NCBI GenBank assembly: GCA_041665365.1
Contig: JBAYIY010000007.1
Location: forward strand, 11,103 to 75,102
DNA from: Patescibacteria group bacterium
GTDB taxonomy: Bacteria; Patescibacteriota; Patescibacteriia; UBA9570
DNA: 64,000 nt
Reading direction: 5' to 3'
This document shows, in pieces, positions 22,265 through 64,000 of the stretch (position 1 is the first letter of the stretch; each line of letters opens with the position of its first letter). Both the position numbers and the translations under genes were made by a program. The notes below the pieces were generated by a model that was not told the DNA's origin, did not search any database, and saw nothing but the letters and a program-made list of their open reading frames with translations.

Positions 22265-22266
22265 TT

Positions 22267-39087: not shown

Positions 39088-39951
39088 ATGAATTATCTTC
39101 GCATTGTCTTTGCCCATTGGATTGCCATATTGTTCATCACCACTGCGGCCGCGGCGCTTACGGTCGGGTTATCTTTTATTCCTACCCAGATGTATTCATC
39201 GGAGGTGTCTTTATTGATTGTGCAGAAACAAGCGCAGTATGTTGACCCTTACACATCACAGAAAGCTGCCGAAAAGTTGGGGCAAAATTTAGTGAATGTG
39301 ATCGACTCATTTGATTTTTTAAACCGCGTTTTGGCCACCGGCACAGTCTCACCCGATTTATTTAGTGCTTCCACTGATGCCCGTAAAAAACAATGGGAAG
39401 CCATGACTGATGCGGAAATGTTTAGTAACACTGGTGTGTTGCATATCACCGCTTATGCCCCCACCGCCGGTGCCGCTGAAGATGTGGTGATGGCCATGAG
39501 TACAGTGCTCACTACTAATTCATCAGATTATCATGGTGGGGGAGATACCGTTGAGATTAAGCTCATCGATGGGCCGGTCACATCGGATAGTCCGGTAAAA
39601 CCAAACATTCCATTAAATGGTGCGATTGCGGCTGTGTTAGGCCTAATCGCCTCGGCGGCTGTATTTATTGTTTATGAAGAAACCAAACGGTTACAAGATG
39701 AACAAGCCAAGGTGAGGTATGTGCAAACCGTCACGCCTGGTAGAGACGTGCCGCCGGCACGTCTCTACGATGATCGGATTGAAAAATCTGATCAAATCAT
39801 AGAGCCCCAATATAAGGTATTAGATGAATACCCCAAACAGCCATATGTGTATGGTGCGGAATTGAAGGATGAAGAACCTCGCCAAGGGGCGGGTGAACCT
39901 CGCCAAGGGGCGGGTGAACCGGTGTCGATGCAGGATCATTTGAAAAAATAG
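39088..39951 (+). CDS. Wzz-like polysaccharide chain-length determinant with repeat-derived C-terminal tail
   Basis: TM1 at the N-terminus followed by Y.SEV.LLI, and TM2 (GAIAAVLGLIASAAVFIV) near residue 190. The tail contains a family-2 palindrome and a 21-bp tandem. Confidence 0.55.
   Translation: MNYLRIVFAHWIAILFITTAAAALTVGLSFIPTQMYSSEVSLLIVQKQAQYVDPYTSQKAAEKLGQNLVNVIDSFDFLNRVLATGTVSPDLFSASTDARKKQWEAMTDAEMFSNTGVLHITAYAPTAGAAEDVVMAMSTVLTTNSSDYHGGGDTVEIKLIDGPVTSDSPVKPNIPLNGAIAAVLGLIASAAVFIVYEETKRLQDEQAKVRYVQTVTPGRDVPPARLYDDRIEKSDQIIEPQYKVLDEYPKQPYVYGAELKDEEPRQGAGEPRQGAGEPVSMQDHLKK
39740..39768. repeat. family-2 palindrome inside the coding sequence
   Basis: gtagagacgtgcc-gcc-ggcacgtctctac, translated as GRDVPPARLY. 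Confidence 0.85.
39874..39920. repeat. 21-bp tandem repeat (2.2 copies)
   Basis: gaacctcgccaaggggcgggt x2 plus gaacc, translated as EPRQGAG EPRQGAG EP. Confidence 0.9.
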
Positions 39952-40008: not shown

Positions 40009-40011
40009 GTA

Positions 40012-40040: not shown

Positions 40041-40064
40041 GTTCAGTTATTTTTGGGGACATAT

Positions 40065-40213: not shown

Positions 40214-40760
40214 TCCGGAGTGGGTAAACACCAGTTAGTCTCACACGAATCAGATGAGAACACCATCAAAGTGAAGGTGTTGCCATGTGGTTCGTCTGTA
40301 TAGCCGGTGATCAGCAATGATCGCTGGCTGTCATGAATCACTCAACCCGAAAGGGTTAAGCACATTTACAATCTACTTTCCTACTTCGACTCGTTTCACT
40401 CGCTCAGTATAAATTTATTGAGCATGTAAGCTTGTCGAATGATCATCGGTAGCGATATACAGACCTCATCAATATACATACTTCTTTGAGTACACCACCC
40501 TAGCCCTCCTATTCTAGGAGGGAATAAGAATAAATTTTCTTACTCCCTTCCTACAATAGGAAGGGCCGGGGATGGTGTATTCCGGAGAGGGATACGTATC
40601 CGGAGAGGTCTCCATATCGCTACCGATGAAACCAACAATATCGGAGCTCGGTTCCCCAACGGGGAGACATTCGTCGCGGCAATTTCGCCGTGATGTATGT
40701 CCACCCGGACGTGAACCGGGACCGATCGACTTCACTCGACTACATGGAGCTACGAAAACA
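40204..40760 (+). promoter_or_regulatory. conserved structured 5' leader, copy A
   Basis: A 91-nt block (40204-40294) is identical to 42545-42635. Block 40443-40625 is near-identical to 42712-42917. Long-range stem cggtagcgatatacagacctc / gaggtctccatatcgctaccg. Confidence 0.6.
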
Positions 40761-42236
40761 ATGACGTTCAAGAACATCCTCGCGATCTTCACGTTCATCT
40801 TCGCCATTCTCGCCCCGGCGACCGTCGCCCAGGCCCAGGAGAAGTGGGAGGATCCAAAAGTGGGTCCGTTCACTCTCGGGTACTGGTCGAAGCTCGATGC
40901 CGGCGCGACCAGTGTCGACGCCGCGGCGGCCGGGATCATGAAGAACTTCAAGGAGTGTGAGAGCAAGTACGGCCAGGGTGGGTGCTACATCCAGTTCGAA
41001 TCATCTACTGACATCAACCGCTGGGACAACACCAAGAATGGCAAGGACGACGCATTGCACGGTGGGCTCGGAGAGGGACGCACCGCGGTCCTCAAGGACG
41101 CGGTGTTTTCTCGATCCGCAAGGATCAAGGAATACTCGGTCACCGACTACCCCCACCACGGTGCGAAAGATGGATGGCGGTACTCCTGGGCGACGATCAT
41201 GCCCAAGGAAGGTGCCTCCGCGATGCCGAAGGTGTCGGCCGACCCCAACAAGAGGTGGAGCTTCCTCACGGAAGTGCTCCTCCGCCAGACCGATAACCTC
41301 TGTCCCACGATGGTGCGGGCGGACGCGGTCACGCGAACCTACACCCTGCAGGGTCAAACCTGCGGGTGCAGCACGTTCGATGCAGTGCCCAGCACCCGCC
41401 AGTTGGAGGTCAGGAACGACCTCACCTGGTTGGGAAAGGTCGTCGCGGACCGCTCGAAGTGGTCCGACGCGAAGACTTTGACCTGGACGGAAGTCCGGGC
41501 CGCTCTCGAGGAGGGCACCGAGTCCCGCGTCATCGAAGTCGACGCGCTCGGCGATCCGTCCTCCACGCCCGACGGTCTGTCCGTTGAGTTCGTGGAGTCG
41601 GAGACCCTGCTCCGGGTGCAGTTCCCGGACAGGTGCTCGCCGATCCTCGACGCCGCGAAGGCAGAGGCCGACGCCAAGGCGCAAGCCAAGGCTCAGGCCG
41701 ACGCCGACGCCCGCGAGTCCGCAAGGCTCGCGGCGTACAACACCGACTTCATGGTCGGTGGGTCGGTCGCGGGTACGGGGACGTTCATCCCCAAGTACAG
41801 CCCCTTCAACCCGGGCAGGGGTTTCGACCTCGCCGGGCACGTCGAGGGCGGTGCGGTGATCGGCGGCGGGTACGGCGCGTGGGCTTTCGGGCTCGGCGTC
41901 GGCCCGTCGTGGGACCCGAACTGCCTGACCCCCGGCCAGGTTGACCTCGAGGCCTTCACCGGCCCGTGGCTCAACAGGCAGGGGAAGGTCGGGTTCTCCG
42001 CCTTCCTGAACGGATCTGCGGGCTTCACCATGTACAACGGTGAAGTCCTCACCCCGCGGTACCGCCTGGGTCTCAACCTGGGCGTGCCCGTGCAGGTGGA
42101 GCGTGAGCTCTACCTGGTTCCCCAGATCGGCCCCGTGGTCGACTGGGTGAGCGGGCAGGTGCAGGCGACCGGCGGCTTCGCGATCACCGAGCGAGTCGGG
42201 ATCGCGGGTGGTCTGCGGATCATCAAGACGTTCTGA
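40761..42236 (+). CDS. high-GC exported protein with C-terminal beta-barrel-like domain (foreign-type)
   Basis: ORF track gives 40572..42236. The true start is likely the ATG at 40761, after GGAG, because it begins the signal peptide MTFKNILAIFTFIFAILAPATVAQA. Strong GC3 bias. Gly/aromatic-rich last ~170 aa, ending in Phe. Confidence 0.7.
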   Translation: MTFKNILAIFTFIFAILAPATVAQAQEKWEDPKVGPFTLGYWSKLDAGATSVDAAAAGIMKNFKECESKYGQGGCYIQFESSTDINRWDNTKNGKDDALHGGLGEGRTAVLKDAVFSRSARIKEYSVTDYPHHGAKDGWRYSWATIMPKEGASAMPKVSADPNKRWSFLTEVLLRQTDNLCPTMVRADAVTRTYTLQGQTCGCSTFDAVPSTRQLEVRNDLTWLGKVVADRSKWSDAKTLTWTEVRAALEEGTESRVIEVDALGDPSSTPDGLSVEFVESETLLRVQFPDRCSPILDAAKAEADAKAQAKAQADADARESARLAAYNTDFMVGGSVAGTGTFIPKYSPFNPGRGFDLAGHVEGGAVIGGGYGAWAFGLGVGPSWDPNCLTPGQVDLEAFTGPWLNRQGKVGFSAFLNGSAGFTMYNGEVLTPRYRLGLNLGVPVQVERELYLVPQIGPVVDWVSGQVQATGGFAITERVGIAGGLRIIKTF

Positions 42237-42553: not shown

Positions 42554-43053
42554 TTCCGGAGTGGGTAAACACCAGTTAGTCTCACACGAATCAGATGAGA
42601 ACACCATCAAAGTGAAGGTGTTGCCATGTGGTTCGAAGAGTCATAGTCGATCAGCAATGATCGCTTGTGACCACGAAACACAATTTGTTCTTTAAAATCT
42701 TCTGCTAAGAATCATCGGTAGCGATATACAGACCTCATCAAGCATACACACTTCTTTGAGTACACCACCCTAGCCCCCCGCCTTGCCGGCGTGGCAGGTC
42801 CTATTCTAGGAGGGAATAAGAATAAATTTTCTTACTCCCTTCCTACAATAGGAAGGGCCGGGGATGGTGTATTCCGGAGAGGGATACGTATCCGGAGAGG
42901 TCTCCATATCGCTACCGGTGAAAACAATACCGGCGTGCTCGGTTCCCAGAATGGGAAAGATGCGGTTGTGGGAATGTTCCCATGACATGTGTTCTACCCT
43001 GTTCAAAAGAACCGGGACCGATCGACTACACAATTTCGACTGGAGCTACGACA
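42545..43053 (+). promoter_or_regulatory. conserved structured 5' leader, copy B
   Basis: See copy A. Same block order, with the middle segment shortened and a 22-nt GC-rich insert at about 42786. Confidence 0.6.
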
Positions 43054-43839
43054 ATGACGCTCAAAAACATCGTGATCTCGCTCGCGCTCGTCGTCGGTTG
43101 CAAGATGGGCCCGGTGCAGGAATGTGACTCGGACTCGGACTGCTTCGAAACCAACACCAACTCCGATACCGACACCGACGCGGACACGGACACGGACGCC
43201 GACGCTGATACGGACACGGACTCCGACACCGATACCACCGAAACCGACGTGGACAACGACGGCGACGGGTACACCGTGGACGGCGGGGACTGCAACGACG
43301 CCAACGCCAGCGTCCACCCGGGCGCGACCGAGTACTGCAACGGCGTCGACGACGACTGCAACGGGTCGATCGACGACAATGACACCGACGGGGACGGGTA
43401 CGTCTCCGACGACTGCACGTCATATGACGGAGTCGCCGGCCTCCCCGGTGGTGATTGCGCGGATTCGATCGGGACGACGGCGTCCTGGTCGAACAGCGAT
43501 ATCCACCCGGGGCAGTTGGAAATGTACGACTGGATCGACACTAACTGCGACGGCACCGCCGACGATGGATGTAGTATGTTGTGCGACACCGACGGCGACG
43601 GATACGAGAATTTCGAACAGGGCAGCGGGCCCGAGTTCGAGTGCGTGGACGCGTCGTTCGTGGCGGATCAGTCCGCCTCGAGCAGCCCGTTCGATACGAC
43701 GATCTCGTGGACGTATGCCTCCAGCGGAGTGGTTTACTCCGGTGTGAACGCAACGTGCGAAATGACGGCGGCCCAGCAGGTCGATCCGTCAACCTGGAGG
43801 ACGATCACGTCCATCCAGGCCGAGATGGCCACCCGCTAA
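43054..43839 (+). CDS. high-GC lipoprotein with (D-T)n tract and MopE-type Cys-rich motifs (foreign-type)
   Basis: Start at the ATG at 43054 after GGAG. Lipobox LALVVGC. DTDTDADTDTDADADTDTDSDTDT tract. DGDGYTVDGGDCNDANASVHPGATEYCNGVDDDCNGSIDD. Confidence 0.7.
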   Translation: MTLKNIVISLALVVGCKMGPVQECDSDSDCFETNTNSDTDTDADTDTDADADTDTDSDTDTTETDVDNDGDGYTVDGGDCNDANASVHPGATEYCNGVDDDCNGSIDDNDTDGDGYVSDDCTSYDGVAGLPGGDCADSIGTTASWSNSDIHPGQLEMYDWIDTNCDGTADDGCSMLCDTDGDGYENFEQGSGPEFECVDASFVADQSASSSPFDTTISWTYASSGVVYSGVNATCEMTAAQQVDPSTWRTITSIQAEMATR

Positions 43840-44562: not shown

Positions 44563-45966
44563 TCAGCGATCCATTTGGCCGTGTGGCCTTGTCTCCACAA
44601 CAATCATGGCTAGCACTGTCATATATGTCCACATCACGGCGGTACCTTGGAGTAGATTATCACTGACACTAATTGTTAGCGCGGCAATAATTAAGGCCAT
44701 ACCAAACAGAGCATAGTGTTTTTGCCAGCTGTCTTCATGGTGGCTAACATAATTCCAGAATAGTGTTACTAACAAACCTAGCCAGAAACCAAGATACAGA
44801 GCCAAACCAACGAAGCCGGTTTCAATGGCTAAACGGAGATAATCATTATGGGCTTCAGGGTCATCAAACAAACCGATATCGCCCTGTTGTCTTAAAGTCA
44901 CAAAGTTGCCTAAACCGTAACCGAGAAGGGGAGAATTGAGGGTTTGCGGTGCCATAGTTTGAAACACCTGTAAGCGCCAATCAATCGAATCGGCTTCCTC
45001 ATCACGACTGGTTAGGCGATGTAAGAGGTTTATTTTATTTAGATCATAATTAAAAGTATTGATGGTAACAGTGTTGATTACTTGCCACAACAAAAATGCA
45101 CCGACTAAGACAGTAGCAATAGTGAGTAATTGTTTACGATAATATTTTAGGCCAATTAATATTTGAATGACGACAAAACCAATCCAGGCACCTCGAGTAT
45201 AGGTGAATAATAACATCACCAACCCCAAGCCGATTAGCCATGGATATATTAAAGACCGTTGTTCAGGTTTTTTAGTCAGTTGGGTGATTAATAATAAATT
45301 TATGATACATACCAAATAAAACCCAAACACATTCGGGTGACCAAAGGTGCCATAGACGCGGTTATCTAAACCACCAAATGATAGCCCGGTGGCGGTAATA
45401 AGCTGCACCAAGCCAGCGGCTAATGGTATCACCAGAGCCACGGCTAGTACCGGTGTTAGCCGCGTGATACTGTGTGGTTGTGTGGTAGCCACGTGGTAGG
45501 CAATTATAAAAATAATCACAATCGAACTGAGGCGGAGCCATTCACTCAATGAGATAAATGTATCCAAGCTGACACCCAAGGTGGCGGCTCCCCAGATTAA
45601 AACTCCAATCAGCCAGCCCAATTGGGTAGTGGCACTAAGTTCAACCCGTTCTCTAAGTAGAATTACTAAGAACCACACAATCACCAATATTGCCACCATG
45701 GAAGTTAAATTTATAGTGACTGATCGAATGGTTAAAAGGCCATAGCCAGAAAATATATCAATGATCGGGCGAAAGATGAGTAGGGCATATAAACCATACT
45801 CGGTTTTTAATAAAAAAATTGGGGCGATAATTACAATGGCCGCTAAGCCAATGGCGGATGTAGCAGAAATATCTCCAAATACTATCCAGCCTAATACACT
45901 TAACACTGTTAGGCTGTATATAATTAAAAGTATGGTGTTGAATTTTGAAAGTGGGGAGAAAGACAT
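44563..45966 (-). CDS. O-antigen ligase-like (Wzy_C/RfaL family) membrane protein
   Basis: 467 aa, about 11 TM. YTRGAWIGF and EAHNDYLRLAIETGFVG motifs. Confidence 0.75.
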   Translation of the reverse strand: MSFSPLSKFNTILLIIYSLTVLSVLGWIVFGDISATSAIGLAAIVIIAPIFLLKTEYGLYALLIFRPIIDIFSGYGLLTIRSVTINLTSMVAILVIVWFLVILLRERVELSATTQLGWLIGVLIWGAATLGVSLDTFISLSEWLRLSSIVIIFIIAYHVATTQPHSITRLTPVLAVALVIPLAAGLVQLITATGLSFGGLDNRVYGTFGHPNVFGFYLVCIINLLLITQLTKKPEQRSLIYPWLIGLGLVMLLFTYTRGAWIGFVVIQILIGLKYYRKQLLTIATVLVGAFLLWQVINTVTINTFNYDLNKINLLHRLTSRDEEADSIDWRLQVFQTMAPQTLNSPLLGYGLGNFVTLRQQGDIGLFDDPEAHNDYLRLAIETGFVGLALYLGFWLGLLVTLFWNYVSHHEDSWQKHYALFGMALIIAALTISVSDNLLQGTAVMWTYMTVLAMIVVETRPHGQMDR

Positions 45967-46025: not shown

Positions 46026-46029
46026 TGAT

Positions 46030-46092
46030 AAAAAAAAGAGGCCCCGGGAGATTGTCATGTACATGCGTAGTACAGACAACCTCAACCGGGGC
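46030..46092 (-). terminator. long-hairpin rho-independent terminator of the third high-GC gene
   Basis: Minus strand: gccccgg...gttgtc-tgtac...gtaca-tgacaat...ccggggc followed by T8. Confidence 0.6.
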
Positions 46093-46103
46093 GTCCAAAT
46101 TCT

Positions 46104-47159
46104 TTACTTGACGGCGACCGTAGGGTTCGCCACCACGAGGATACTCCCCATGATGGTCTCCACGTCGCCGGCGTAATTCCCGCCGGCATTGTGGAGGTCG
46201 ATCCCCTCGGCCTTCACCACCTCTTCCCGGACGCCGTCAGCGACCGGGAAAGCCACCTCGCCCTCGCCGTACGAATCGTCGACGACGAAGAAGAAATGAT
46301 CCCGGGCGACTTCACAAAGTCGTTTGCCCGGGAGAGTGGTCAGACTCGAACACTTGAACCCCTCCGGCAGCACGAGGATGCTGCCCATCGTGAGTTCCGG
46401 AATCGTTCCGGTGTACTCACTCAGGGCGTAGCTATCCCCGGAGCCGGCGAGGGGCCCGGTGAAGCAATCGTAGCCCGACGAGGCGCCATCGCCGCAAGAG
46501 AGGTGGGTATGATCCACCTCAATGGGCAACGGCCGCCCGATCGGGCCAGTCTGAGTCAATTCTCCCACACGCACCGCCTGGGTCGCGGTCGTGTGGGAGC
46601 CACCGTGAGCCCCAACCCAGCGGGTGGAGTCATATCCCTTCTCACACGCGCTGAACGGCGCGGAGTCGGGGAGGACCCACCCGGACGAGCCGTCGAAGTA
46701 GCTGATTTCAACAACGGTACCGTCAGGCTGCAGGGCCGTGACGATCCCATTGTTGTACAGATCATCCGACGTGTCCCTCATGGCGAAGGAATCGGGGAGG
46801 TAAACCTCCCTCGTTCTCCTGCCATCGGGGGCTGTCACGGTCACCGGTGACGAGTCTTTCGACCCGTCGAGGACAAAAACCGGGTCGATGTCGACCCAGT
46901 CAAGTCCTCCGTCCCAGTCCGTCTCGACCGTCCGGGCGATCTTGCGATCAACCTGGAGGTCACGGATCTGGAACGGCACCGAGGCCCAGCACTCGGCCGG
47001 GGTCTCGGTGTCGGTGTCCGCGTCAGTGTCAGAGTCGGTGTCCGTCTCCGCTTCGGGGCAGGTCGCCCCGGGCAGAGACGGATCACAATTGAGCTCTCCA
47101 CACCCCGCCACCAAAATGGTGACCAGGACGAGGAGCAGCTCGATGATGTAGCGCAACAT
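46104..47159 (-). CDS. high-GC lipoprotein with (D-T/S)n tract (foreign-type)
   Basis: 351 aa. Lipobox LVAGC. ETDTDSDTDADTDTE tract. Strong GC3 bias. AAGGAG lies 6 nt before the ATG. Confidence 0.7.
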   Translation of the reverse strand: MLRYIIELLLVLVTILVAGCGELNCDPSLPGATCPEAETDTDSDTDADTDTETPAECWASVPFQIRDLQVDRKIARTVETDWDGGLDWVDIDPVFVLDGSKDSSPVTVTAPDGRRTREVYLPDSFAMRDTSDDLYNNGIVTALQPDGTVVEISYFDGSSGWVLPDSAPFSACEKGYDSTRWVGAHGGSHTTATQAVRVGELTQTGPIGRPLPIEVDHTHLSCGDGASSGYDCFTGPLAGSGDSYALSEYTGTIPELTMGSILVLPEGFKCSSLTTLPGKRLCEVARDHFFFVVDDSYGEGEVAFPVADGVREEVVKAEGIDLHNAGGNYAGDVETIMGSILVVANPTVAVK

Positions 47160-47272
47160 GACTGCTCCTTACCCCTGGTCGGGGTGGGGGGACTGTTTGT
47201 TCGTCAAGTAATATGAATTTGGAAAGAACTAGTGTCGCTTACAGACAAAATTTGCCCATAAACGAACCGCAC

Positions 47273-54077: not shown

Positions 54078-54441
54078 ATTCTGTGTTGTCAGTGGTTTTA
54101 ACACGGTTGTTGACTTGGGTTCGTATTGGATTTTAACGAGATATTTTTCGTGGTGGGCACATCATCTAGTATTGGCTCATATTGTGTCTTTGATTATCAC
54201 CATGGTACATAGTTATGCGTGGAATTCTCTATGGGTTTTTGCCAAAGAGCATACCAACGATATCGTGTCCTTTATCAAGTTTGTGATTGTATCGATGTCT
54301 GGTTTGGTAATGAGTAGTGTTTTGTTTTGGGTAATGCTAGAAATTCACATTAATGATTGGGTTGTAAAGTTAAGTATGATGTTCTTTTTATTTGTGTGGA
54401 ATTTTGCCGGAGATAAGTGGTGGGTGTATACTAAAAAATAA
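54043..54441 (+). CDS. GtrA-like membrane protein
   Basis: 132 aa, 4 TM. FIKFCVVSGFNTVVDLG N-terminal motif. Confidence 0.7.
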   Translation: MRLPINLHQFIKFCVVSGFNTVVDLGSYWILTRYFSWWAHHLVLAHIVSLIITMVHSYAWNSLWVFAKEHTNDIVSFIKFVIVSMSGLVMSSVLFWVMLEIHINDWVVKLSMMFFLFVWNFAGDKWWVYTKK

Positions 54442-54442
54442 T

Positions 54443-55471
54443 ATGGTTAAACACGCAATTTTCGATAAAAAAAATATCTTAGTAGTCGGTGGGGCTGGGT
54501 TTATTGGTTCACATCTGTGTGACGAGTTGGTGAAACAAAATAAAGTCATCTGTGTGGATAATTTCGTCACTGGCCACGTGGAAAACATTGAGCATTTATT
54601 AGGTAATGCCAACTTTATTTTTATTAAGCATGATATTAATGAACCGTTAGATTTAACCAAGTTTCCTGAATTAGAAAAATTTCAAGTACAATTTCAAGGT
54701 GTTCAGGAAATATTTAATTTAGCCGTACCGACTAATAAACATACTTTTGAAGAGAATATTTTTAATACTTTATTGGCTAATTCTTATGCCGTCAGAAATA
54801 CTTTGGAAATAGCGAAACAGTTTCAGGCCAAATATTTATTCGCGTCATCGTCGTCAGTGTACGGTGATCCAATTGATGGACAAGATCTGTTTTCCGAGGA
54901 CTATTGGGGGTTTGTTGATCCAACTGGTCCACGCAGTTGTTATAATGAAGGCAAACGGTTTGGCGAGAGTTTTGTGACTAGTTTTGGTAAGCAATTTGGG
55001 ATTGATGTGAAAATCGGTCGCATCTTTAATACCTATGGTCCACGCATGGCGCTTAATTCTGGTCGCATGATACCTGATTTTGTGACTGAAGCGGCGGCGG
55101 GACACGATGTCTTAATTTATGGCCACGGAGCCGAAACTGATACCTATTGTTTCGTGAATGATATTATTGATGGCTTGTTAAAATTAATGAGCTACAAAGT
55201 AGCCGGACCAATCAATTTAGGTAGCCCAGAACGTTATACGATGTTGGATATTGCCAAAAAGATTATTACGTTTACAGAGTCAAAAGCGCAGATTAAATTT
55301 ACTGATGCGCTACCATTTTTAACAACACCTGGCGTGGCTGATATTAGTAAAGCCAAACAACAGTTGGGTTGGTTTCCGGTAGTGGCTTTAGATGAAGGTT
55401 TACGTCAAACTGTAGCGGATATGTTAGGTAGTCGAGTTTTAACTTATGCTCGAGTCGGTGGATTGACATAG
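54443..55471 (+). CDS. UDP-glucuronate decarboxylase / NAD-dependent sugar epimerase-dehydratase
   Basis: Start moved to MVKHAIF. VVGGAGFIGSHL, SSSSVYG and YNEGKRFGE (YxxxK). Confidence 0.8.
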   Translation: MVKHAIFDKKNILVVGGAGFIGSHLCDELVKQNKVICVDNFVTGHVENIEHLLGNANFIFIKHDINEPLDLTKFPELEKFQVQFQGVQEIFNLAVPTNKHTFEENIFNTLLANSYAVRNTLEIAKQFQAKYLFASSSSVYGDPIDGQDLFSEDYWGFVDPTGPRSCYNEGKRFGESFVTSFGKQFGIDVKIGRIFNTYGPRMALNSGRMIPDFVTEAAAGHDVLIYGHGAETDTYCFVNDIIDGLLKLMSYKVAGPINLGSPERYTMLDIAKKIITFTESKAQIKFTDALPFLTTPGVADISKAKQQLGWFPVVALDEGLRQTVADMLGSRVLTYARVGGLT

Positions 55472-55498
55472 ACGAGATTATTTTGTATAGTTTGCCCC

Positions 55499-56785
55499 AT
55501 GAATATTAGTGTTATCGGTACCGGTTATGTTGGTTTGGTCACAGGAGCCTGTTTAGCTGAGGCTGGCCATCAAGTAACTTGTCTGGATATAAATCAGGAA
55601 AAAATCAGTGGTTTACAACGTGGTATTATTCCTATTTTTGAACCTGGTCTTGAAGCAGTTGTACAAAGCAATGTGCAATTAGAACGCTTAAAATTTACGA
55701 CTGATTTAGCTGACGCCATACCGCAAAGTGAAGTTGTCATCATTGCCGTTGGTACGCCATCTGCCCCTGACGGTACAGCTGATTTGCAGTATGTATTTGC
55801 GGCGGCTGAGGGCATTGCCAAGAAAATGCAACGTTACACAGTGATAGTCACAAAATCAACTGTGCCAGTTGGAACGGGCAAAAAAGTTGAAGCGATAATA
55901 AAACAACATTATACCGGAGATTTTGCCTATGCCTCTTGTCCGGAATTTTTGCGCGAAGGCTGCGCCGTGGATGATTTTTTCTCTCCGGATCGAGTAGTAA
56001 TTGGAGTACGTAATGATCAGGCCAGTGCTGTCATGCTCGATATGTTTAAGCCAATTCGCGGGCAGAAAGTTGTTACCACGGTGGAGTCGGCCGAATTGAT
56101 TAAATATGCTTCAAATGCTTTTTTAGCCACGAAGATTTCTTTTATCAACGAAATTGCTCAGGTGTGTGAGCGCATGGGAGCAGACATTGAGGAGGTGGCT
56201 TATGGGGTTGGGTTAGATCACCGGATTGGTCCTAAATTCTTAAAAGCCGGTATTGGTTGGGGTGGGTCATGTTTTCCAAAGGATGTGTCGGCGCTCGGAC
56301 AAATGGCTGGTGCCTCAGGCTATGATTTTAGGTTATTGCAATCGGTTATTGAAGTGAATCATAATCAACGCAAGCATTTTATTGCTCGGGTGCGTGAACA
56401 TATTGGCGAAATAGATCATAAAAAAATTGGTGTATTGGGGTTGGCTTTTAAAGACAATACCGATGATATTCGAGAGTCAGCCGCGATCGATGTGATTCAA
56501 CAGTTAGTAGCCGCCGGTGTTACCGTAACCGCCTTTGATTATCAAGCCACCGAAGCCGCCCGGCGTGTTTTACCTGATACGGTCAAGTTTGCGAGTGACC
56601 CATATGAGGTGGCTGCTCAAGCCGATGCGGTTTTGGTATTAACAGAATGGAAAGAGTTCAAAGAGCTTGATTGGGTAAAGATAAAAGATAGTATGATTCA
56701 ACCGGTGGTGTTTGATGGCCGAAATTTACTCAAACCGAAAACGATGATTGAATTGGGTTTCCATTATTATTCCATTGGTCGATGA
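55499..56785 (+). CDS. ugd: UDP-glucose 6-dehydrogenase
   Basis: VIGTGYVGLV, GGSCFPKD catalytic Cys, GLAFK.NTDD.RES. Confidence 0.9.
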   Translation: MNISVIGTGYVGLVTGACLAEAGHQVTCLDINQEKISGLQRGIIPIFEPGLEAVVQSNVQLERLKFTTDLADAIPQSEVVIIAVGTPSAPDGTADLQYVFAAAEGIAKKMQRYTVIVTKSTVPVGTGKKVEAIIKQHYTGDFAYASCPEFLREGCAVDDFFSPDRVVIGVRNDQASAVMLDMFKPIRGQKVVTTVESAELIKYASNAFLATKISFINEIAQVCERMGADIEEVAYGVGLDHRIGPKFLKAGIGWGGSCFPKDVSALGQMAGASGYDFRLLQSVIEVNHNQRKHFIARVREHIGEIDHKKIGVLGLAFKDNTDDIRESAAIDVIQQLVAAGVTVTAFDYQATEAARRVLPDTVKFASDPYEVAAQADAVLVLTEWKEFKELDWVKIKDSMIQPVVFDGRNLLKPKTMIELGFHYYSIGR

Positions 56786-57723
56786 AACTCATTGTTACGA
56801 TTCCATGTTATAACGAAGCCGAAAATATTGCGGCTGTTATTCGTGAAATCCCACACTCTATAACTGGTATCGATCAAGTTAATGTTCTTGTGATTGACGA
56901 CGGTTCGAGTGACGGAACGGCCGGAATTGCACGAGCGGCGGGAGCTGAAGTAATTGTAAATACTAAGAATTTGGGTTTAGCGAGAAGTTTTCAGCGGGCG
57001 TTATGGGAAGCAGTTAAAAGAGAGGCGGATATTGTTGTGAATACAGACGGCGATAATCATTATGATCAGTCTAAAATTGGCGATTTAATAGCACCCATTA
57101 TAGCCGGTCAAGCTGATATCGTGATTGGTTCACGCAAATTACTACAAACTAAAAATAAGTTCTTAAACAAAGTGGGCAGTTTGGTTATGACAAAATGGGC
57201 CGGTTTACCAAAATACGATGTATCGACCGGTTTTCGCGCTTATAGTAAAGATGCGGCTCTACGGTTAGGCGTTTATTCCACTCACACTTATGTTCATACT
57301 ACTTTACTCTCTGCCCAAGATCAGGGCTTAACCATGTTAGAGATACCAATTGCCGATCGCATAGTAAAACGTCCGTCACGCTTAATAAAAAGTGTCCCCC
57401 GTCATATTTGGATGGCCGGTTGGAATATAGTACGCAACATTGTCATTTTTAGACCCCTCAGATTTTTTGGCTTAATTGGACTGATTTTGACTATCATTGG
57501 CGCCGTGCCATTGCTGCGCTTTTTTTATCTATATTTAATAAATAAGGGAGATGGGCATTTACAATCAGTGGTGATTGGTACCATGTTTATTTTATTGGGC
57601 TACATTAATGTGGTGTTAGGCTTATTAGGATCATCAATTGGCTGGCATCGAAAAATCACCGAAGAAGTGTTGTACCGTTTGAAAAAAATCGAACTGGATG
57701 ACCATACTCTTCATCACTCGTAA
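56782..57723 (+). CDS. GT2 glycosyltransferase, polyprenol-phosphate sugar synthase-like with C-terminal TM segments
   Basis: VTIPCYNEAENI, DDGSSDGT, DGDNHYD. Two C-terminal TM helices. Confidence 0.75.
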   Translation: MKLIVTIPCYNEAENIAAVIREIPHSITGIDQVNVLVIDDGSSDGTAGIARAAGAEVIVNTKNLGLARSFQRALWEAVKREADIVVNTDGDNHYDQSKIGDLIAPIIAGQADIVIGSRKLLQTKNKFLNKVGSLVMTKWAGLPKYDVSTGFRAYSKDAALRLGVYSTHTYVHTTLLSAQDQGLTMLEIPIADRIVKRPSRLIKSVPRHIWMAGWNIVRNIVIFRPLRFFGLIGLILTIIGAVPLLRFFYLYLINKGDGHLQSVVIGTMFILLGYINVVLGLLGSSIGWHRKITEEVLYRLKKIELDDHTLHHS

Positions 57724-58651
57724 ATATCCACCGTCGATCGGAGGCATGCAGACTTTTAGTGCCGGTTTTGTAGCGGCTTTTAAAACTGACTGTACTTTGG
57801 TTTATAAAAAATTCTGGCGCTCCTTTTGGTTATATAAAAATCATGATGTTATTCATTTAGGTGATGGCGTGTTAGCGGGTTTGGGAGTTATCTTAAAATG
57901 GTATACAAAAAAACCTGTCACGATTACGGTGCATGGTCTAGATGTGACTTATCGCAAGTGGTTTTATCAAGCATATATTAAATACTGTCTACCAAAATTA
58001 GATGGCATTATGGCTGTTAGTCCGGCCACGAAACAAGCGGTTCAAACTATTTTTCCCAAATGTCAGGTAACAGTGATACCGAACGGTTTAAATATGGCAG
58101 ACTGGCCAAGGGGTGATGCACCAAGAAATAATCATTTATTATTTGTGGGCAGATTAGTGCCTCGAAAAGGCTGTGCCTGGTTTGTACAAAATGTGTTCCC
58201 GAAATTACCGGATAATATTATTTTAGATGTAATCGGGGACGGAGAAGAATATGAAAAATTGGTAAACATTGATCGTGTAAAATTACACGGACAGGTAAAT
58301 GATGAAACTTTAAAAAAGTTTTATAGAGAATCGGCCATGTTGCTAATGCCTAATTTGGTGGTACCGGGAAACATGGAGGGTTTTGGGATAGTGGCCATTG
58401 AAGCCGGAGTTTGTGGATTACCTGTGCTGGCTGCCAAACTGGAAGGAATGGAGTCAATTATTATTGACGGAACCACTGGTTTTTTGGTAGACTCGGGTGA
58501 CGTGGCAGCGTGGCTAGAAAAAATAAAGGCTTTACAACAAAAGCCTTTAACTAGTGTGGTGATTCAAAATGAAATAGTAAAAAGATATAATTGGGATAAT
58601 GTTAAGCAACAATATTTAAAGATATTTTATGGCCTCAATACAAATAAATGA
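57698..58651 (+). CDS. GT4-family glycosyltransferase
   Basis: MTILFITRKYPPSIGGMQTF and MEGFGIVAIEAGVCGLPVLA. Confidence 0.75.
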   Translation: MTILFITRKYPPSIGGMQTFSAGFVAAFKTDCTLVYKKFWRSFWLYKNHDVIHLGDGVLAGLGVILKWYTKKPVTITVHGLDVTYRKWFYQAYIKYCLPKLDGIMAVSPATKQAVQTIFPKCQVTVIPNGLNMADWPRGDAPRNNHLLFVGRLVPRKGCAWFVQNVFPKLPDNIILDVIGDGEEYEKLVNIDRVKLHGQVNDETLKKFYRESAMLLMPNLVVPGNMEGFGIVAIEAGVCGLPVLAAKLEGMESIIIDGTTGFLVDSGDVAAWLEKIKALQQKPLTSVVIQNEIVKRYNWDNVKQQYLKIFYGLNTNK

Positions 58652-58853
58652 TCAGTTACTGGCTGACTTACAAAAGATTGTGTCCGCTAGCCAAGAATTC
58701 AAAAGTGTTGATGAATATGTTGGTTATATTTTAGGGCAAGTAGTTGAGAAAAAATCCCGTCAAGCCAGTAGTACAGCTCCTGTGACACAATATTCAAAAG
58801 CCGATGAGGATAAAATTAGAGAGCGCTTAAAGAATTTGGGTTACCTCGACTAG
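58629..58853 (+). CDS. small hypothetical protein
   Basis: 74-aa ORF overlapping the previous stop. No family recognised. Confidence 0.35.
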   Translation: MASIQINDQLLADLQKIVSASQEFKSVDEYVGYILGQVVEKKSRQASSTAPVTQYSKADEDKIRERLKNLGYLD

Positions 58854-58867
58854 CTCGGTATAAATAT

Positions 58868-59878
58868 ATGGATATTTTTGGGGATATTGGTGGACGCACA
58901 AACGGGGTGGTGATCCATCATTGGGATACTGATGGTTTAGTATCGGCCGCTCTATTGCGCAATTACTTTCAACAACACTATCCAGAAAAAAAACTGGCTT
59001 TGTTCACGCCGATTATCACAAACTATTATTTAACGAGCGATCAATACGATTATTTGCAACAACAGGGCTATGAATTTATTATCACCTGTGATTTGAATTT
59101 CCCCAGTACGACAGTGCAAAATTTAGCGCAGCGTTGGCCGGGGCAAGTGTATTTTTTTGATCATCATCACCATCCGGCACCACATGATAATGTACATTAT
59201 TATAACGCCGAACATCCGGCGTGTGCATCGCATATCGCCGAGCGTTTACACTTACCGTACGATATTTTGCCGGTTATTGCCATGGTGGGTGATCGGGAAG
59301 ATGGCATTCAGCAAGATAAGTTATATTACCCTTATGTGCAGGCGGTGCTGGGCGAATATAATTTAACGTTTGGTCAATTACTGGAGGCCAGACGATTAAT
59401 TGATTCTAATTACATCGCCGATGATTATACGGGTATTACTGAGACGGTTCAATTATTGCAAGATGATCCGATGTCGATTTTTAGCGATCTTAGATTAAAG
59501 GATAATTTAACCAAAATTGATGAAGAGATGACTCGCCTTATAGTATTATCCGGGCAAGAATTATCTGCCGGTGTTATGTATTGGGAAATTAATACGCATT
59601 TTAATTTGTTGTCACATATTACTCGGGCTTTATCCCGCCAGTACCCTGATAAAATTATTGTCACTAGACAACTAAAAAATAATCAGCATAATTGTTATGT
59701 GCGGAGTCGCTTAAATAACTTTGACGCTCGTCCATTAATTGCTTTAGCTCATGAATTGGGCTTAAATAGCGGCGGTAAACCGGAAGTAGCTGGGATTATT
59801 ATACCACCAGAGCAATTAGATACTGTCTTTCCAAAAATACAAAGCTACCTGGTCTCAACTTATGGCCAGCCACATTAA
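58868..59878 (+). CDS. DHH-family phosphoesterase (NrnA-like)
   Basis: [12 protein letters not shown] (DxD) and FFDHHHH (DHH) motifs. Overlaps cysC by 17 nt. Confidence 0.55.
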
Positions 59879-60419
59879 ATGGCACGGCGGTACAGTGCAG
59901 CGTTCACATGGCCGTATTATTTGGTTAACCGGATTATCTGGCTCAGGGAAATCCACATTGGCGGTTGCTCTGGAACAACATTTATTTGATCAGGGCAAAC
60001 TAGTTTATCGTTTAGACGGTGATAATATCAGACACGGTTTAAATAAAGATTTGGGTTTTAGTGCAGCTGACCGTGTAGAAAATATTCGGAGAATAGGTGA
60101 AGTGAGTAAATTATTTGTCGCTGCCGGAGTAACAGTTATTACAGCCTTTATTTCACCCTATCAGGCTGACCGTGACTTAGTAAGGCAACTAGTAAAGCCT
60201 GGAGAGTTTATTGAAGTATTTGTGAATTGCCCATTAGAAATTTGTGAACAACGTGATGTGAAGGGTTTATATGCCCAAGCCAGGGCCGGTGAAATTAAAG
60301 ATTTTACCGGTGTGAATGCACCTTATGAGGTGCCAACTCACCCTGAAGTAGTTATCAATACTGAAAAACAATCCATCGATCAAGCTCTCCAGCAACTCGT
60401 GCTATGTTTAAATATATAG
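59862..60419 (+). CDS. cysC: adenylyl-sulfate (APS) kinase
   Basis: [37 protein letters not shown] and FISPY. Confidence 0.9.
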
Positions 60420-62053
60420 ACGCTATTATTATTTTAGGGTTGTTAGTTATAAGTGGTCTTTGGTTTGGCTGGCATCATGCTTATGGAGCCTATGGTGATG
60501 ACGCACCGGGTTATATATATTTAGCTCATGACATGCTCACTGGTGGAGATTTAGTTAAACAGGATCCGCTAGTTAAACAAGCCTTAGATTGGTTCGGTGC
60601 TGAACCATTGGCTCGGTTTGTGGCGCCAGCTCATTATGAAATAATTTCACCAATTGGCTGGACTGCATCTCGTTATCCGATTGGATTGAGTTTGTTGATG
60701 GCGGGAGCGGCACTAATAACAGGAAATGTTTTGGCGATGTATTGGGTAGTACCGCTTTCGGCCATGAGTGTAGTAATACTAACTTACTTAATCAGTTTGA
60801 AACTGTTCAACTTATCTGAGCCATGGAAAAGATTAGTTGGTTTAGGTAGTGCCGTAGTTGTTTTGGGTTGCGGCCTATTTGCCCAATATGCGGCGGCGCA
60901 ACCCATGCGTGAGATACCCTCGATGGTCTTTTTTATGTTAGCCTTTTACTTAATATTATTATCAAAAAAATGGTACGTTGTTTTGTTGGCCGGTCTGAGT
61001 ATGGCTCTAAGTTTAGGGATTAGGGAGACAAGTATTATATTGTTAATCCCTCTGGTTCTAACAGTATTTATGTTTAATAAAAAGAACTGGAAAGTAGTAG
61101 GAGTTTGTTTAATGGGAATAATATTAGGGTATAGTATTTTTTTAGTGCAAGCGGTTGATATTACACTGCATAAAGAAAAATTTCGTGATAAAGATGTTAC
61201 CCGAATTGCCATCACTTCAAATATTGATCATATTCAATCATTGGCTATTCATAATTTATGGAACAATCAGGGTAAATTTAAACCGGGGGTAGGTGGCCTA
61301 AAACAATATTGGGAAGTAACGCAACAGTTTAGCGCTTGGCCATTATTTATAATCTTTATTATCGTTGGGGCGGTTTATCTATGGAAGAAACAGCGGGCAG
61401 AATTTTGGGTGCTGCTTAGTTGGGTGAGTGGGATAATATTATTATTCGGCATGTGGATAAACCCATATCCGAGATATATCCTGCCGATTCTGCCGGTGTT
61501 GGGTTGGCTTAGTCTAGTTGGATTATTTTACAGTCATGAATTATTTGTTAAACTATTAAAAATACAGAAGACTATTAGTGTTTTTATTCTGGTTTTATTG
61601 GGATTATCTTTTGTTTTATCATATCAACCGATCTATGCTGCTCAACAAACACGCCTACAAACCGGTGCGCCGCTTGACCGCGAGTTAACCTATGATGATT
61701 TGATAAATATTCAAACGGCTATAACAACAGTGCAGACTGATGCTGGCACAACTGGTAAGACACCATTATTATTAATGTTGGGTGCAACCAAAGGCGGTCT
61801 ATCCGAAACGATTATGAGCCATACCACCATTAAGGTGATTCGTTTTCCGAGTAAAGATAAAGAGCAACCCCCATTAGAGCAACTCACATCCTTTATTAGT
61901 CAGTTACAAGAGACATATACGATCTATTTATGGTATGATGCCAGTGTTAGTGCACAGGAACAAAGGTTTTATAATCAATATGTGGTGCGTCCTGTAACAA
62001 CCACTACTACTTCATTTCAACCAAATATTAGTATCTATGCCATTACCGAATAA
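60404..62053 (+). CDS. polytopic GT-C-like membrane glycosyltransferase (ArnT/PMT-like, tentative)
   Basis: 549 aa. About 11 TM followed by a soluble C-terminal domain. Early acidic motif YGDDAPGY. Confidence 0.45.
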
Positions 62054-62714
62054 AATTAGTGATATTAATGCTTATCAACAACCACATGATAGTATTTTTA
62101 GTCGTTTAATCTATCGCAAGATTTCAAAGGTTTTAACCTTTTACATGGTGCGTTATATTCCTGGTATTGCGGCACCGGATGTGACGATCATTTCATTTAT
62201 CTTCGGTTTGATTGGAGCCGTTGGCTTAATGTATCCTGCGTGGTGGGCGCGTATTTTAGCTTTTATCTGTATACAATTATCATTTTCTTTTGATTGTTCA
62301 GATGGGGAAGTGGCGCGTATGTTGGGACGGGGCAGTAAGTTCGGCATTTGGTTTGATAGTATATCTGACCGCACTAAAGAAATTTTATGGTTTTTTGCTA
62401 TCGCGTGGCAATACCAACATGCTTACCCCCAGGTGTGGTACTTAGCCGGTGGTGCGGCGATTGGTAATTTACTAGTGGGGTATTTACGGGAAGCCAAAAA
62501 GAGTATTTTCTTGGAACAACGCAAACCAGAAATAATATTAAAATCCGGTCTGCATATTGGTACGGTTGATGTTATCACTGTATTGCTCTCCTGGGGCGCA
62601 ATTTTTGGTCTGAGTTATTATGTATTATGGATTGTATTATTACCTACGCCCTTATTGTTGCTTAAGCAAATAGTGAGCACCTATCGGCAATCGCCGAAGC
62701 CAAACCGTCAATAA
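62037..62714 (+). CDS. CDP-alcohol phosphatidyltransferase family protein
   Basis: DCSDGEVARMLGRGSKFGIWFDSISDR matches D(x)2DG(x)2AR...G(x)3D(x)3D. Confidence 0.8.
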   Translation: MPLPNKISDINAYQQPHDSIFSRLIYRKISKVLTFYMVRYIPGIAAPDVTIISFIFGLIGAVGLMYPAWWARILAFICIQLSFSFDCSDGEVARMLGRGSKFGIWFDSISDRTKEILWFFAIAWQYQHAYPQVWYLAGGAAIGNLLVGYLREAKKSIFLEQRKPEIILKSGLHIGTVDVITVLLSWGAIFGLSYYVLWIVLLPTPLLLLKQIVSTYRQSPKPNRQ

Positions 62715-63986
62715 CGCGCCATAACACAGGAGCCCCAGGCTTGATACTGCCACACAAGTGATCAGAGTCATTGGTTTGGTGGTGGAAAAACCAATCCACC
62801 AGGGTTTACTGAACCATAAAGTTAAACCAACTAAACCACCACTGATGATAGATGGTACGACAGGTTTAAAACTCGCCCAGAGTGGTGCTTGAATGATGCG
62901 ACGGGAAATAACAAAAAATATACCCTGGGAAAATAATTCAATGATAAAACTCGCGATCGCTCCACCCAGAAAACTAAACCACGGCATCAAAATTAAATCC
63001 AAAACAACATTACCAACTACGGCTACACCTTCTTGTTTAGTTCTGAGTGGCTGATTTTCAGTCGTTGCAAAAATTTGGCTGGATGTTATGCCGATAAACC
63101 GGACAATAAAAAAAGCCCCAAATAACATCAAAGCTGGAATGGCATTCCAGAAGGCCGGTTTGTACAAAATGTGCATGATCAAATCAGCTTGAGTAATTAT
63201 TAACACACCGATAATAATACCAGCTGAACTCATATATTCAGTGGAGCGGCTAACAATTTTACGGTATTTGTCTAATTGATCAGGGTAGGCCGCGTATAAA
63301 TAAGGTGTGATCACTTGCAAGCCAATGCGATGAAACACAAGAAAAAAAACGACGATGCGCGATGAGGCACCGTAGCGGGCAATGTCACCATCGGCGATAT
63401 TGGCCCAGCCGGTAATTTGGAAAACCCGCAGCACCCATTTATCAACCTCAAAATATACTGTCATTATTAAAGCCTGCATGGCAAACCACACGCCCTCTCG
63501 AATCATGGGTTTAGCCAGAGCCCAATCTAGGGTTGGGCGTACTAAATGGAATGAGTTGAGTAAATAAATCACCATGAAAAATATGGTGGTGAGGGTATAC
63601 CAGCCGGCTATAATGTATGCGCCCAAGGTAATGTCAGTAATCAGGTATGTAATTAATACAATCCCCAAAAGTTTACTTAAACCATCGAGCACTTCAAGGT
63701 AGGTAATTTTTTCGTGGCTATGTTTACTGCGAAAAATTGACCGAATCGGCACACGATATTGAATGGCGGCTTGGTTAAGACCCAGTATCGCCATTAGCCA
63801 AAACAACACGGTTAAACCATTAAACAAAGCATATCCACCCAATATCACCACAAAGATTAACATCCAAGCTATAGTTTCTATAGTGAGGGCAGTACCATAG
63901 TGGCGTTCACTGGTGTGTTTCATTAGCACCATGCTCATACCTACCTCACTGGCGATCATCACGATACTAACAATGGAGCTGGCCAA
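62652..63986 (-). CDS. polysaccharide flippase-like (MOP/Wzx) membrane protein, possibly extending past the window
   Basis: 444 aa, 12 or more TM. Located in the glycan locus. The N-terminus lies within 14 nt of the window end. Confidence 0.5.
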   Translation of the reverse strand: MASSIVSIVMIASEVGMSMVLMKHTSERHYGTALTIETIAWMLIFVVILGGYALFNGLTVLFWLMAILGLNQAAIQYRVPIRSIFRSKHSHEKITYLEVLDGLSKLLGIVLITYLITDITLGAYIIAGWYTLTTIFFMVIYLLNSFHLVRPTLDWALAKPMIREGVWFAMQALIMTVYFEVDKWVLRVFQITGWANIADGDIARYGASSRIVVFFLVFHRIGLQVITPYLYAAYPDQLDKYRKIVSRSTEYMSSAGIIIGVLIITQADLIMHILYKPAFWNAIPALMLFGAFFIVRFIGITSSQIFATTENQPLRTKQEGVAVVGNVVLDLILMPWFSFLGGAIASFIIELFSQGIFFVISRRIIQAPLWASFKPVVPSIISGGLVGLTLWFSKPWWIGFSTTKPMTLITCVAVSSLGLLCYGALLTVWLRRLPIGAHYLLKQQ

Positions 63987-64000
63987 ATCAAACGAATCGG

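Follow-up and report, generated by a model that had tools for sequence, protein, structure and literature searches.

The window analysed here is a stretch of 64,000 nucleotides from a metagenome-assembled genome (MAG) of a Patescibacteria group bacterium, and forms part of the 85.6-kb contig JBAYIY010000007.1. It carries two overlapping genes, a DHH/DHHA1 phosphoesterase gene (58868..59878) and cysC (59862..60419), whose products are predicted to be a phosphatase of 3'-phosphoadenosine 5'-phosphate (PAP) and an adenylyl-sulfate (APS) kinase. What does such a pair do in a bacterium of the candidate phyla radiation (CPR)? We consider it probable that the two genes form a module for the supply of 3'-phosphoadenosine 5'-phosphosulfate (PAPS) and the removal of PAP within a surface-glycan operon, and that this module serves sulfation. 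The parts of the explanation do not stand equally firm. The biochemical identity of the pair, judged from homology and catalytic motifs, is highly probable; its service to sulfation in this glycan pathway has an even chance or somewhat better, and it is the gene context that points to a glycan as the acceptor.

The two open reading frames (ORFs) and their start and stop codons were read in the sequence. The ATG of cysC stands at 59862 and the stop TAA of the DHH gene at 59876-59878, which gives the overlap of 17 nt already described in a sequence-only reading of this DNA. CysC scores 234 bits with PF01583 (cutoff 21.1), 272.1 bits with NF003013 (cutoff 163) and 260 bits with TIGR00455 (cutoff 138.7), and its match to APK1 of Arabidopsis thaliana (3uie) has 207 bits. 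The P-loop and the DGDNIR, FISPY and KGLY motifs are intact and align with those of solved APS kinases and of orthologs. These matches mark the protein as a genuine APS kinase. Compared with its orthologs, the CysC of the window alone misses 8 aa before the P-loop as well as the C-terminal "GYL" tail.

What kind of phosphoesterase is the partner of CysC? The protein passes the Pfam thresholds of both domains (DHH 35.9 against 28.1 bits, DHHA1 30.0 against 25.9 bits), and its sole sequence match in the PDB by phmmer is MtPAPP (8a8k; E = 1e-17, residues 12-330 against 20-334). In Methanothermococcus thermolithotrophicus, the gene of MtPAPP has those of ATP sulfurylase and APS kinase as neighbours, and the enzyme was shown to be a fast phosphatase, specific for PAP and stimulated by Mn (PMC10322725). 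When a family profile of 38 homologs is compared with the PDB, MtPAPP is matched at full length (positions 11-328, 248 bits, E = 1.1e-72), and the next matches are archaeal RecJ-like chains at E = 2.6e-8 or weaker, restricted to the N-terminal DHH domain. NrnA-like chains (3dev, 5o1u/TM1595, 7d62) reach E = 0.007-0.2 over partial stretches and GdpP-like chains match within the DHH domain, so that RecJ-, NrnA- and GdpP-like chains together range from E = 1e-8 to 0.2. No NrnA model of NCBIfam is matched, and the RecJ models give 38.5 bits (TIGR00644, cutoff 396.9) and 19.6 bits (archaeal RecJ, cutoff 360) over about 100 N-terminal residues; with 336 aa, the protein has no extra RecJ oligonucleotide-binding (OB) or C-terminal domain. 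NrnA, RecJ and GdpP were ruled out as identities by the NCBIfam cut-offs and the PDB profile ranking.

The catalytic residues tell the same family. H18, D20, D22, D75, D98-H99-H100, D142 and G302-G303-K304 are invariant in the 38 homologs, and H18, D20, D22, D75, H99, H100 and D142 align with the Mn ligands His6, Asp8, Asp10, Asp57, His76, His77 and Asp127 of MtPAPP. S249, Y277, R279, G302-G303-K304, V307 and G309 are also invariant and identical in the MtPAPP alignment; the residues contacting AMP are not listed in the text of the paper. By full-length homology, then, the DHH protein is a member of the MtPAPP family, and PAP specificity is predicted for it at an identity to MtPAPP of about 26-30%. 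The sequence-only reading had taken it for an NrnA-type enzyme hydrolysing PAP. The family was wrong and the predicted reaction stands; clustering with RecJ or c-di-AMP phosphodiesterases is not seen, MtPAPP being the best match by far in the PDB ranking. The PAPS/PAP cycle that was proposed for the pair thus finds strong support in the families, the catalytic motifs and the conserved pairing described below, by way of MtPAPP and not of NrnA.

Is the pairing more than an accident of a compact genome, where one overlap is weak evidence? A scan with one genome per species gave 308 relatives of the DHH protein, and the synteny counts come from the best 80 of these 308. The 80 comprise 16 Patescibacteria/Kerfeldbacteria loci, and the rest are mostly archaea (Asgard, Bathyarchaeia, Thermoplasmatota and Methanobacteriota). 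The pair is conserved: cysC lies directly downstream of the DHH relative, on the same strand, in 47 of the 80 species-level genomes, and downstream of it in all Patescibacteria loci whose contig reaches far enough. Where no gene intervenes, the two overlap by 4-23 nt in 12 of 13 loci. There are also 29 archaeal genomes that have the DHH gene without cysC. The DHH-cysC adjacency is far beyond chance.

The pair belongs to a larger cassette with a recurrent order: a small gene called orf74, ATP sulfurylase (sat; PF01747 with PUA_2, or CysD/CysN in some archaea), DHH, in some cases an alkaline-phosphatase-superfamily (AP) gene, and cysC. Sixteen Patescibacteria lineages share this order with Asgard, Thermoplasmatota and Methanobacteriota, and sat is directly upstream of DHH in most archaeal loci too. 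Asgard archaea and the more divergent Patescibacteria have the optional gene, of 460 aa and with a PF01663 domain, after DHH and before cysC. A sulfotransferase of 194 aa and of the PF00685/PF13469 type directly adjoins cysC, on one side or the other, in 21 loci of Thermoplasmatota/Methanobacteriota, so the cassette there feeds sulfotransfer and not reduction. This archaeal sulfotransferase (L049:11590-12174 and 20 other loci, where L with a number denotes a locus of our collection) has 194-198 aa, weak PF00685/PF13469 matches, an N-terminal "GLERSGTS" loop and no NCBIfam model, and is placed mostly right after cysC. That the whole cassette is common to two domains of life suggests that it moves as a unit. 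In several metagenome cassettes a TauE/SafE-family transporter (142-155 bits) directly follows cysC (L135:8063-8842, L154:8022-8792, L097:7171-7962); it is a candidate for a sulfate or sulfo-anion transporter of the module, and no gene of this kind is present in the window. Note that several third-party MAGs in the collection (L003, L005, L006, L010, L013, L016) are titled "uncultured Gammaproteobacteria bacterium" and have the full Patescibacteria-specific synteny at 35-77% identity; it is probable that these MAGs are mislabelled.

In Patescibacteria the cassette is always within the same glycan operon. There cysC is followed, and usually overlapped, by a gene for a glycosyltransferase (GT) of the GT-C fold and then by a CDP-alcohol transferase gene; the GT-C gene comes after cysC in nearly every sufficiently long Patescibacteria locus (the exception is L012), and the synteny of the glycan operon holds down to about 35% DHH identity. 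The genes of this region in the window are as follows.

54202..54441, plus strand: GtrA-like small membrane protein (PF04138, GtrA_DPMS_TM)
54443..55471, plus strand: NAD-dependent sugar-nucleotide epimerase/dehydratase, UXS/ArnA-like (PF01370 and PF16363), syntenic in relatives
55499..56785, plus strand: UDP-glucose/GDP-mannose 6-dehydrogenase family protein (PF03721, PF00984, PF03720), syntenic in relatives
56782..57723, plus strand: GT2 glycosyltransferase with a C-terminal membrane segment, polyprenyl-phosphate sugar synthase-like (PF00535, 70 bits)
57698..58651, plus strand: GT4 glycosyltransferase (PF13692 and PF00534), syntenic, with a 23-nt overlap with orf74
58629..58853, plus strand: orf74, small protein with an N-terminus like that of ribbon-helix-helix (RHH) proteins; its homologs head the sulfate-activation cassette
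58868..59878, plus strand: DHH/DHHA1 phosphoesterase of the MtPAPP family, predicted PAP phosphatase, 336 aa (Pfam DHH and DHHA1, homology to PDB 8a8k)
59862..60419, plus strand: cysC, predicted APS kinase, 185 aa (PF01583, NF003013, TIGR00455)
60404..62053, plus strand: predicted GT-C fold membrane glycosyltransferase, ArnT/STT3-like, 549 aa (AlphaFold2 model and Foldseek)
62037..62714, plus strand: CDP-alcohol phosphatidyltransferase family protein (PF01066, 44 bits)
62652..64000, minus strand: polytopic membrane protein of unrecognised family, 491 aa, with its 3' part in the window (gene calls on the contig; start at about 64127)

From 52094 to 62714 the plus-strand genes form a nearly continuous chain in which stop and start codons mostly overlap, consistent with one long operon. 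CysC and the GT-C gene (ATG at 60404) overlap by 16 nt, and the latter overlaps the CDP-alcohol transferase gene by 17 nt; besides GT4/orf74, two further overlaps in the chain are of the GT2/GT4 type, with 56 nt and 26 nt. Such overlaps would allow joint production of the DHH protein, CysC, the GT-C protein and the CDP-alcohol transferase. The same arrangement was independently assembled in a Joint Genome Institute (JGI) sample. Orthologs of the GT2 protein (56782..57723) are 63-80% identical and have the equivalent position in relatives. The CDP-alcohol transferase is syntenic across the Patescibacteria loci, and its best NCBIfam matches, the IPCT/DIPPS and archaetidylinositol-phosphate synthase models, are both under cutoff. 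The neighbourhood of GT2, GT4 and CDP-alcohol phosphatidyltransferase genes seen by the sequence-only reading is thus borne out by Pfam matches, and its GT-C-like member by the predicted fold.

Could either of the two genes left unassigned in that reading, 58629..58853 or 60404..62053, supply a missing activity, as it had suggested? The answer seems to be no for both, the former being the small RHH-like protein of the cassette and the latter having a GT-C fold. The AlphaFold2 model of 60404..62053 has high confidence (pLDDT 94.9, pTM 0.94), and its top Foldseek matches in the PDB are STT3, AglB, PglB and ArnT, with E from 4e-8 to 1e-4 and TM-scores of 0.59/0.61 for ArnT (5ezm). D32/D33 in the first external loop after the first transmembrane segment are (nearly) invariant among the homologs. 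The protein itself has no Pfam match; some homologs weakly match PF13231 (PMT_2). On the strength of the modelled fold it is a GT-C glycosyltransferase, and the same fold rules out a novel sulfotransferase or a transporter. The orf74 family has 73-84 aa as aligned and an invariant C-terminal motif, SK.DE.KI.ERL..LGYLD. In Patescibacteria, Asgard, Thermoplasmatota and Methanobacteriota its members are encoded ahead of sat or cysDN (for example L004:2272-2496, L019:8543-8767, L049:8583-8825, with about 35 further loci). Neither Pfam nor the PDB gave a significant match, the RHH matches being weak and in single members only. At the end of the CysC proteins of these cassettes there is an "LGYL" tail that resembles the C-terminus of orf74 and is lost in the CysC of the window, and the likeness of the two tails suggests a shared interaction motif. 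At 74 aa and with an RHH-like pattern orf74 is unlikely to be an enzyme; it might perhaps be a regulator or an accessory subunit.

Which enzyme would then use the PAPS? Since the cassette makes PAPS and destroys PAP, some enzyme must convert one into the other. A hidden Markov model (HMM) of the archaeal 194-aa sulfotransferase has no match in any Patescibacteria locus. Just past the end of the window, on the opposite strand and 1.4-6 kb downstream, lie three tandem PF01663 paralogs of 520-527 aa (L001:15271-19993, window coordinates about 64138-68860). They have PF01663 scores of 105-123 bits (cutoff 23) and no signal peptides, and are the first three genes of a minus-strand unit of which the 491-aa membrane protein is the last. 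The block of paralogs and membrane protein is found in L005, L007, L008, L083, L085 and L087 as well. The membrane protein has no Pfam or NCBIfam match; a Wzx-type flippase was considered for it and dropped, there being no Pfam match and no similarity to the Polysacc_synt protein of a related locus.

The three paralogs are homologous over their full length to the 460-aa family inside the operon of relatives ("AP461"; hhalign E = 2.5e-74), and the positions D, T/S, D-H, D-H and H, that is the metal ligands and the Thr/Ser nucleophile, are common to both. For the in-operon member, the structure model (pLDDT 93.6) is closest to ENPP1/3/5/6 and the Xanthomonas (Xac) enzyme among the nucleotide pyrophosphatases/phosphodiesterases (NPPs). 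The PF01663, ligand and fold matches establish membership in an NPP-like fold family only, and not sulfotransferase activity. More than 7200 database matches belong to this family, all named just "alkaline phosphatase family protein", and in hundreds of archaeal and bacterial contigs such a gene is placed after sat/DHH and before cysC. Of 80 metagenome loci sampled independently around sat, 50 have the family between sat (or DHH) and cysC, and the commonest layout is orf74-sat-AP-cysC. In-operon members are also present in Asgard and other Patescibacteria loci (e.g. L015:10993-12378, L019:10996-12372). An in-operon AP gene and a canonical sulfotransferase gene never co-occur in an operon, the AP gene being outside the operon in the four loci that have both; the sulfotransferase is always accompanied by DHH in the cassettes examined. 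In one ORF of 686 aa (L089:8001-10061), a linker of 55 aa connects an NPP-like domain (1 to about 460) with a domain of APS kinase (519-666); the neighbours of this ORF are a homolog of orf74, another PF01663 gene, GT4 genes and a Polysacc_synt flippase gene. In Brocadiaceae and Acidobacteria the NPP-like family is likewise paired with a second PF01663 gene and with GT4/GT2 genes.

As the only conserved uncharacterised enzyme available, the NPP-like family is a candidate for the PAPS-to-PAP step. It is conceivable, and we propose it tentatively, that these proteins are non-canonical PAPS-consuming sulfotransferases of polyprenyl-phosphate-linked sugars. They have clear rival roles, as PAP phosphatases of an alternative kind or as nucleotide pyrophosphatases. 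A substitute ATP sulfurylase was considered too and set aside: the same paralogs exist in relatives that have sat, and the in-operon member stands beside sat.

If these parts are put together, the following scenario might be drawn. The UDP-sugar enzymes with the GT2 and GT4 proteins would build a polyprenyl-phosphate-linked sugar or oligosaccharide. CysC would phosphorylate APS to PAPS, and a cytoplasmic sulfotransferase, for which the three NPP-like paralogs are the candidates, would use PAPS, most likely on the polyprenyl-phosphate-linked sugar or glycan intermediate. PAP inhibits sulfotransferases (PMC10322725), and the MtPAPP-type Mn-dependent DHH phosphatase would hydrolyse it to AMP and phosphate. 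At last the GT-C enzyme would deliver the lipid-linked sugar to an acceptor outside the membrane.

Several points weigh against this scenario. On the side of the donor, no Sat or CysD homolog was found by tblastn or HMM in the window and the contig extensions (contig positions 11103-83816 of 85638, 72.7 kb), so APS supply is unexplained by any sat or CysDN in the contig stretch read, and the CysC of the window is trimmed at both ends. On the side of the consumer, no canonical sulfotransferase (PF00685, PF13469 and relatives) is present among the about 50 window ORFs scanned against Pfam, and neither PF01747 nor PF01507 is matched in that scan; the sequence-only reading, too, had seen no ATP sulfurylase or sulfotransferase in the window. 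The closest folds of the NPP-like proteins are hydrolases, nucleotide pyrophosphatases/phosphodiesterases. Their putative role as sulfotransferases is drawn from gene context, which is confounded by phylogeny because few clades are involved. The fusion of an NPP-like domain with CysC may be a read-through artefact, being found in one contig and joining genes that are normally adjacent in the same order. Finally, the searched literature has no sulfated glycan from CPR bacteria, in line with the remark of the sequence-only reading that sulfated surface glycans are undescribed there.

What else could explain the pair? One alternative accepts the PAPS/PAP module as real and holds that its acceptor is a small molecule, a lipid or a protein, the glycan locus being just the landing site of a horizontally acquired cassette. 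The cassette is common to two domains, suggesting transfer as a unit, and outside Patescibacteria it is often without glycosyltransferases, the gene after it then coding for a transporter of the TauE/SafE family, for a HAD hydrolase or for an epimerase. However, a mere landing site does not go well with nearly all sufficiently long Patescibacteria loci having the GT-C and CDP-alcohol transferase genes right after cysC in the same GT2/GT4/UDP-sugar operon, and the NPP-like homologs of Brocadiaceae and Acidobacteria also adjoin GT4/GT2 genes. We regard an acceptor other than a glycan as unlikely, with perhaps one chance among several.

The next alternative concerns the missing sulfurylase. Most relatives have a sat gene of 383 aa between orf74 and DHH, while in the window orf74 and DHH are separated by 14 nt. 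The sat-less layout is shared by four lineages (the window, L005, L083/84 and L085/86), and the equally close L003, L004, L010 and L087 keep sat, which makes the absence lineage-specific. As to a single or a repeated loss of sat, trees of DHH, of CysC and of GT-C do not agree in placing the window and L005 as sisters, and the four sat-less junctions are not alignable. Is the pair then a decaying remnant, which lost sat, left CysC without substrate and has dropped out of sulfation, with DHH maybe kept as a general PAP phosphatase? The absence of sat from the cassette in these four lineages would fit decay, and so would the CysC of the window, without the 8 aa before its P-loop and without its C-terminal tail. 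The DHH protein is able to work alone, as in the 29 archaeal genomes mentioned above. PAP is also produced by phosphopantetheinyl transfer. Yet the four sat-less lineages, with 25-35% protein divergence, all have an intact, overlapping DHH and cysC with every catalytic motif, which is unexpected without selection and thus points to continued selection. What is more, CPR genomes quickly shed unused genes, and sat may lie elsewhere, about 73 kb of the genome having been inspected. Decay of the pair is therefore quite improbable. APS could come from a gene elsewhere in the genome or from uptake from the host. A metagenome scan with the closest Sat gave nothing closer than 64% identity, and this result is not informative on a sat elsewhere in the genome.

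A third alternative is that the genes serve assimilatory sulfate reduction, from PAPS to sulfite and sulfide. In He et al. 2021 (PMC7906910), the CPR/DPANN genes sat, cysC and cysN are counted with sulfate reduction, and MtPAPP works with a PAPS reductase in M. thermolithotrophicus (PMC10322725). But PAPS reductase, APS reductase and sulfite reductase are all absent from the window, from the readable part of the contig and from every Patescibacteria locus, none of which has a CysD-like gene either, and the cassette sits inside a glycan operon. The window has in addition a complete SUF-type Fe-S assembly cluster at 20034-24441 (SufC, SufB, SufD, SufS and a NifU-like protein), which indicates that sulfur is drawn from cysteine and fits PAPS genes that do not serve assimilation. 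An assimilatory role thus has very little probability. As to the idea that the DHH protein is a RecJ-like nuclease, a nanoRNase or a cyclic-dinucleotide phosphodiesterase placed beside cysC by coincidence, it draws on database names ("single-stranded DNA-specific DHH superfamily exonuclease", "phosphoesterase RecJ protein") and a weak TIGR00644 match of the N-terminal domain, and is hardly credible against the low RecJ score, the full-length profile match to MtPAPP and an adjacency with cysC kept across two domains.

Some other features of the window may be noted. Two islands at 40000-44000 and 46000-47200 have a GC content of 0.53-0.58 against about 0.40 for the window. Their ORFs (40572..42236, 42982..43839 and 46104..47159, minus strand) encode secreted or lipoprotein-like proteins with long acidic (Asp-Thr/Ser)n runs and a MopE-like metal-binding motif, and are interleaved with Wzz (39088..39951) and Wzy_C (44563..45966) genes. 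The islands could stem from foreign DNA, or else encode surface proteins of odd composition. At 9824-14179, on the minus strand, a protein of 1451 aa has a C-terminal ABC1 atypical kinase-like domain (91 bits) as its sole recognisable domain, followed by a 709-aa protein without family match.

What does the pair mean for the reading of CPR genomes? Genes for sat/cysC or "PAPS synthase" have been noted in CPR MAGs and were classed as sulfate reduction or treated generically (PMC7906910, PMC12114108); the searched literature holds no report of a link between CPR sat/cysC and either glycan loci or a phosphatase of the MtPAPP type. If the preferred explanation holds, these genes are to be read as a PAPS donor system tied to surface-glycan synthesis and not as "sulfate reduction". 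The MtPAPP family was reported from 168 archaea (PMC10322725); a phosphatase of this type is no longer archaea-only, and would move together with APS kinase, in one cassette, between archaea and CPR bacteria. Jespersen et al. 2023 postulated a "non-canonical sulfo-transferase" for archaea that have ATPS, APSK and PAPP but no known PAPS consumer (PMC10322725). If the NPP-like proteins were sulfotransferases, they would supply this enzyme, and Kerfeldbacteria-like CPR bacteria would display sulfated surface glycans by means of a cassette exchanged with archaea. The attachment of these episymbionts to their hosts could be influenced by surface charge and sulfation. Two conserved leads arise in any case, the NPP-like enzyme family in the PAPS/PAP cassette and the small RHH-like protein heading the cassette in both domains. 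Four lineages with kinase and phosphatase but no sulfurylase also raise the question where APS comes from in a minimal symbiont.

How does the locus compare with known systems? Its gene content resembles the Gtr/Arn-type three-component glycan modification in the GtrA-like protein, the GT2 with membrane tail, the UDP-sugar dehydrogenase and epimerase and the ArnT-like GT-C protein; unlike the locus of the window, the known Gtr/Arn systems have no APS kinase, PAP phosphatase or NPP-like enzymes. For the proposed sulfation of a lipid-phosphate-linked sugar in the cytoplasm before flipping, there is a precedent in the low-salt N-glycan pathway of Haloferax volcanii (Agl5-Agl15), where Agl7 is needed for sulfation of dolichol-phosphate-hexose (PMC3892788). 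Agl7 (HVO_2046), which may be AP/sulfatase-like, is a mechanistic precedent only, with no sequence link established to the proteins of the window. The cassettes of Thermoplasmatota and Methanobacteriota, orf74-(sat or cysDN)-DHH-cysC-sulfotransferase, have orthologous orf74, DHH and cysC in the same order; they differ from the Patescibacteria loci in ending with the 194-aa sulfotransferase and in being without the GT-C and CDP-alcohol transferase genes.

Among phosphatases, NrnA/YtqI, the bifunctional nanoRNase/pAp phosphatase of Bacillus subtilis, shares with the DHH protein the two-domain DHH/DHHA1 fold and the hydrolysis of PAP, which is predicted for the protein of the window. Unlike NrnA, the latter has the DHHA1 motif GGK where NrnA has GGGH, and apart from the DHH motifs the two sequences show no significant relationship. 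The CysQ/FIG-superfamily PAP phosphatases share the predicted reaction, from PAP to AMP and phosphate, by which the PAP inhibition of sulfotransferases is relieved, but they are of an unrelated fold and the metal chemistry of CysQ uses three Mg2+ (PMC10322725); the window has no CysQ-like gene. The nearest likeness is to MtPAPP/MtAPSK/MtATPS (PMC10322725; PDB 8a8k, 8a8h). The phosphatase is of the same DHH/DHHA1 family, with identical Mn ligands and DHH motif, and is encoded beside an APS kinase, in relatives also beside an ATP sulfurylase. Unlike in M. thermolithotrophicus, the host is a bacterium, no PAPS reductase accompanies the pair, the sulfurylase is absent, and a glycan operon surrounds the cassette, with read-through into the GT-C gene. 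The pair may therefore be seen as a variant of the ATPS-APSK-PAPP arrangement which is bacterial, reductase-free and placed inside a glycan operon, and which is sulfurylase-free in the lineage of the window.

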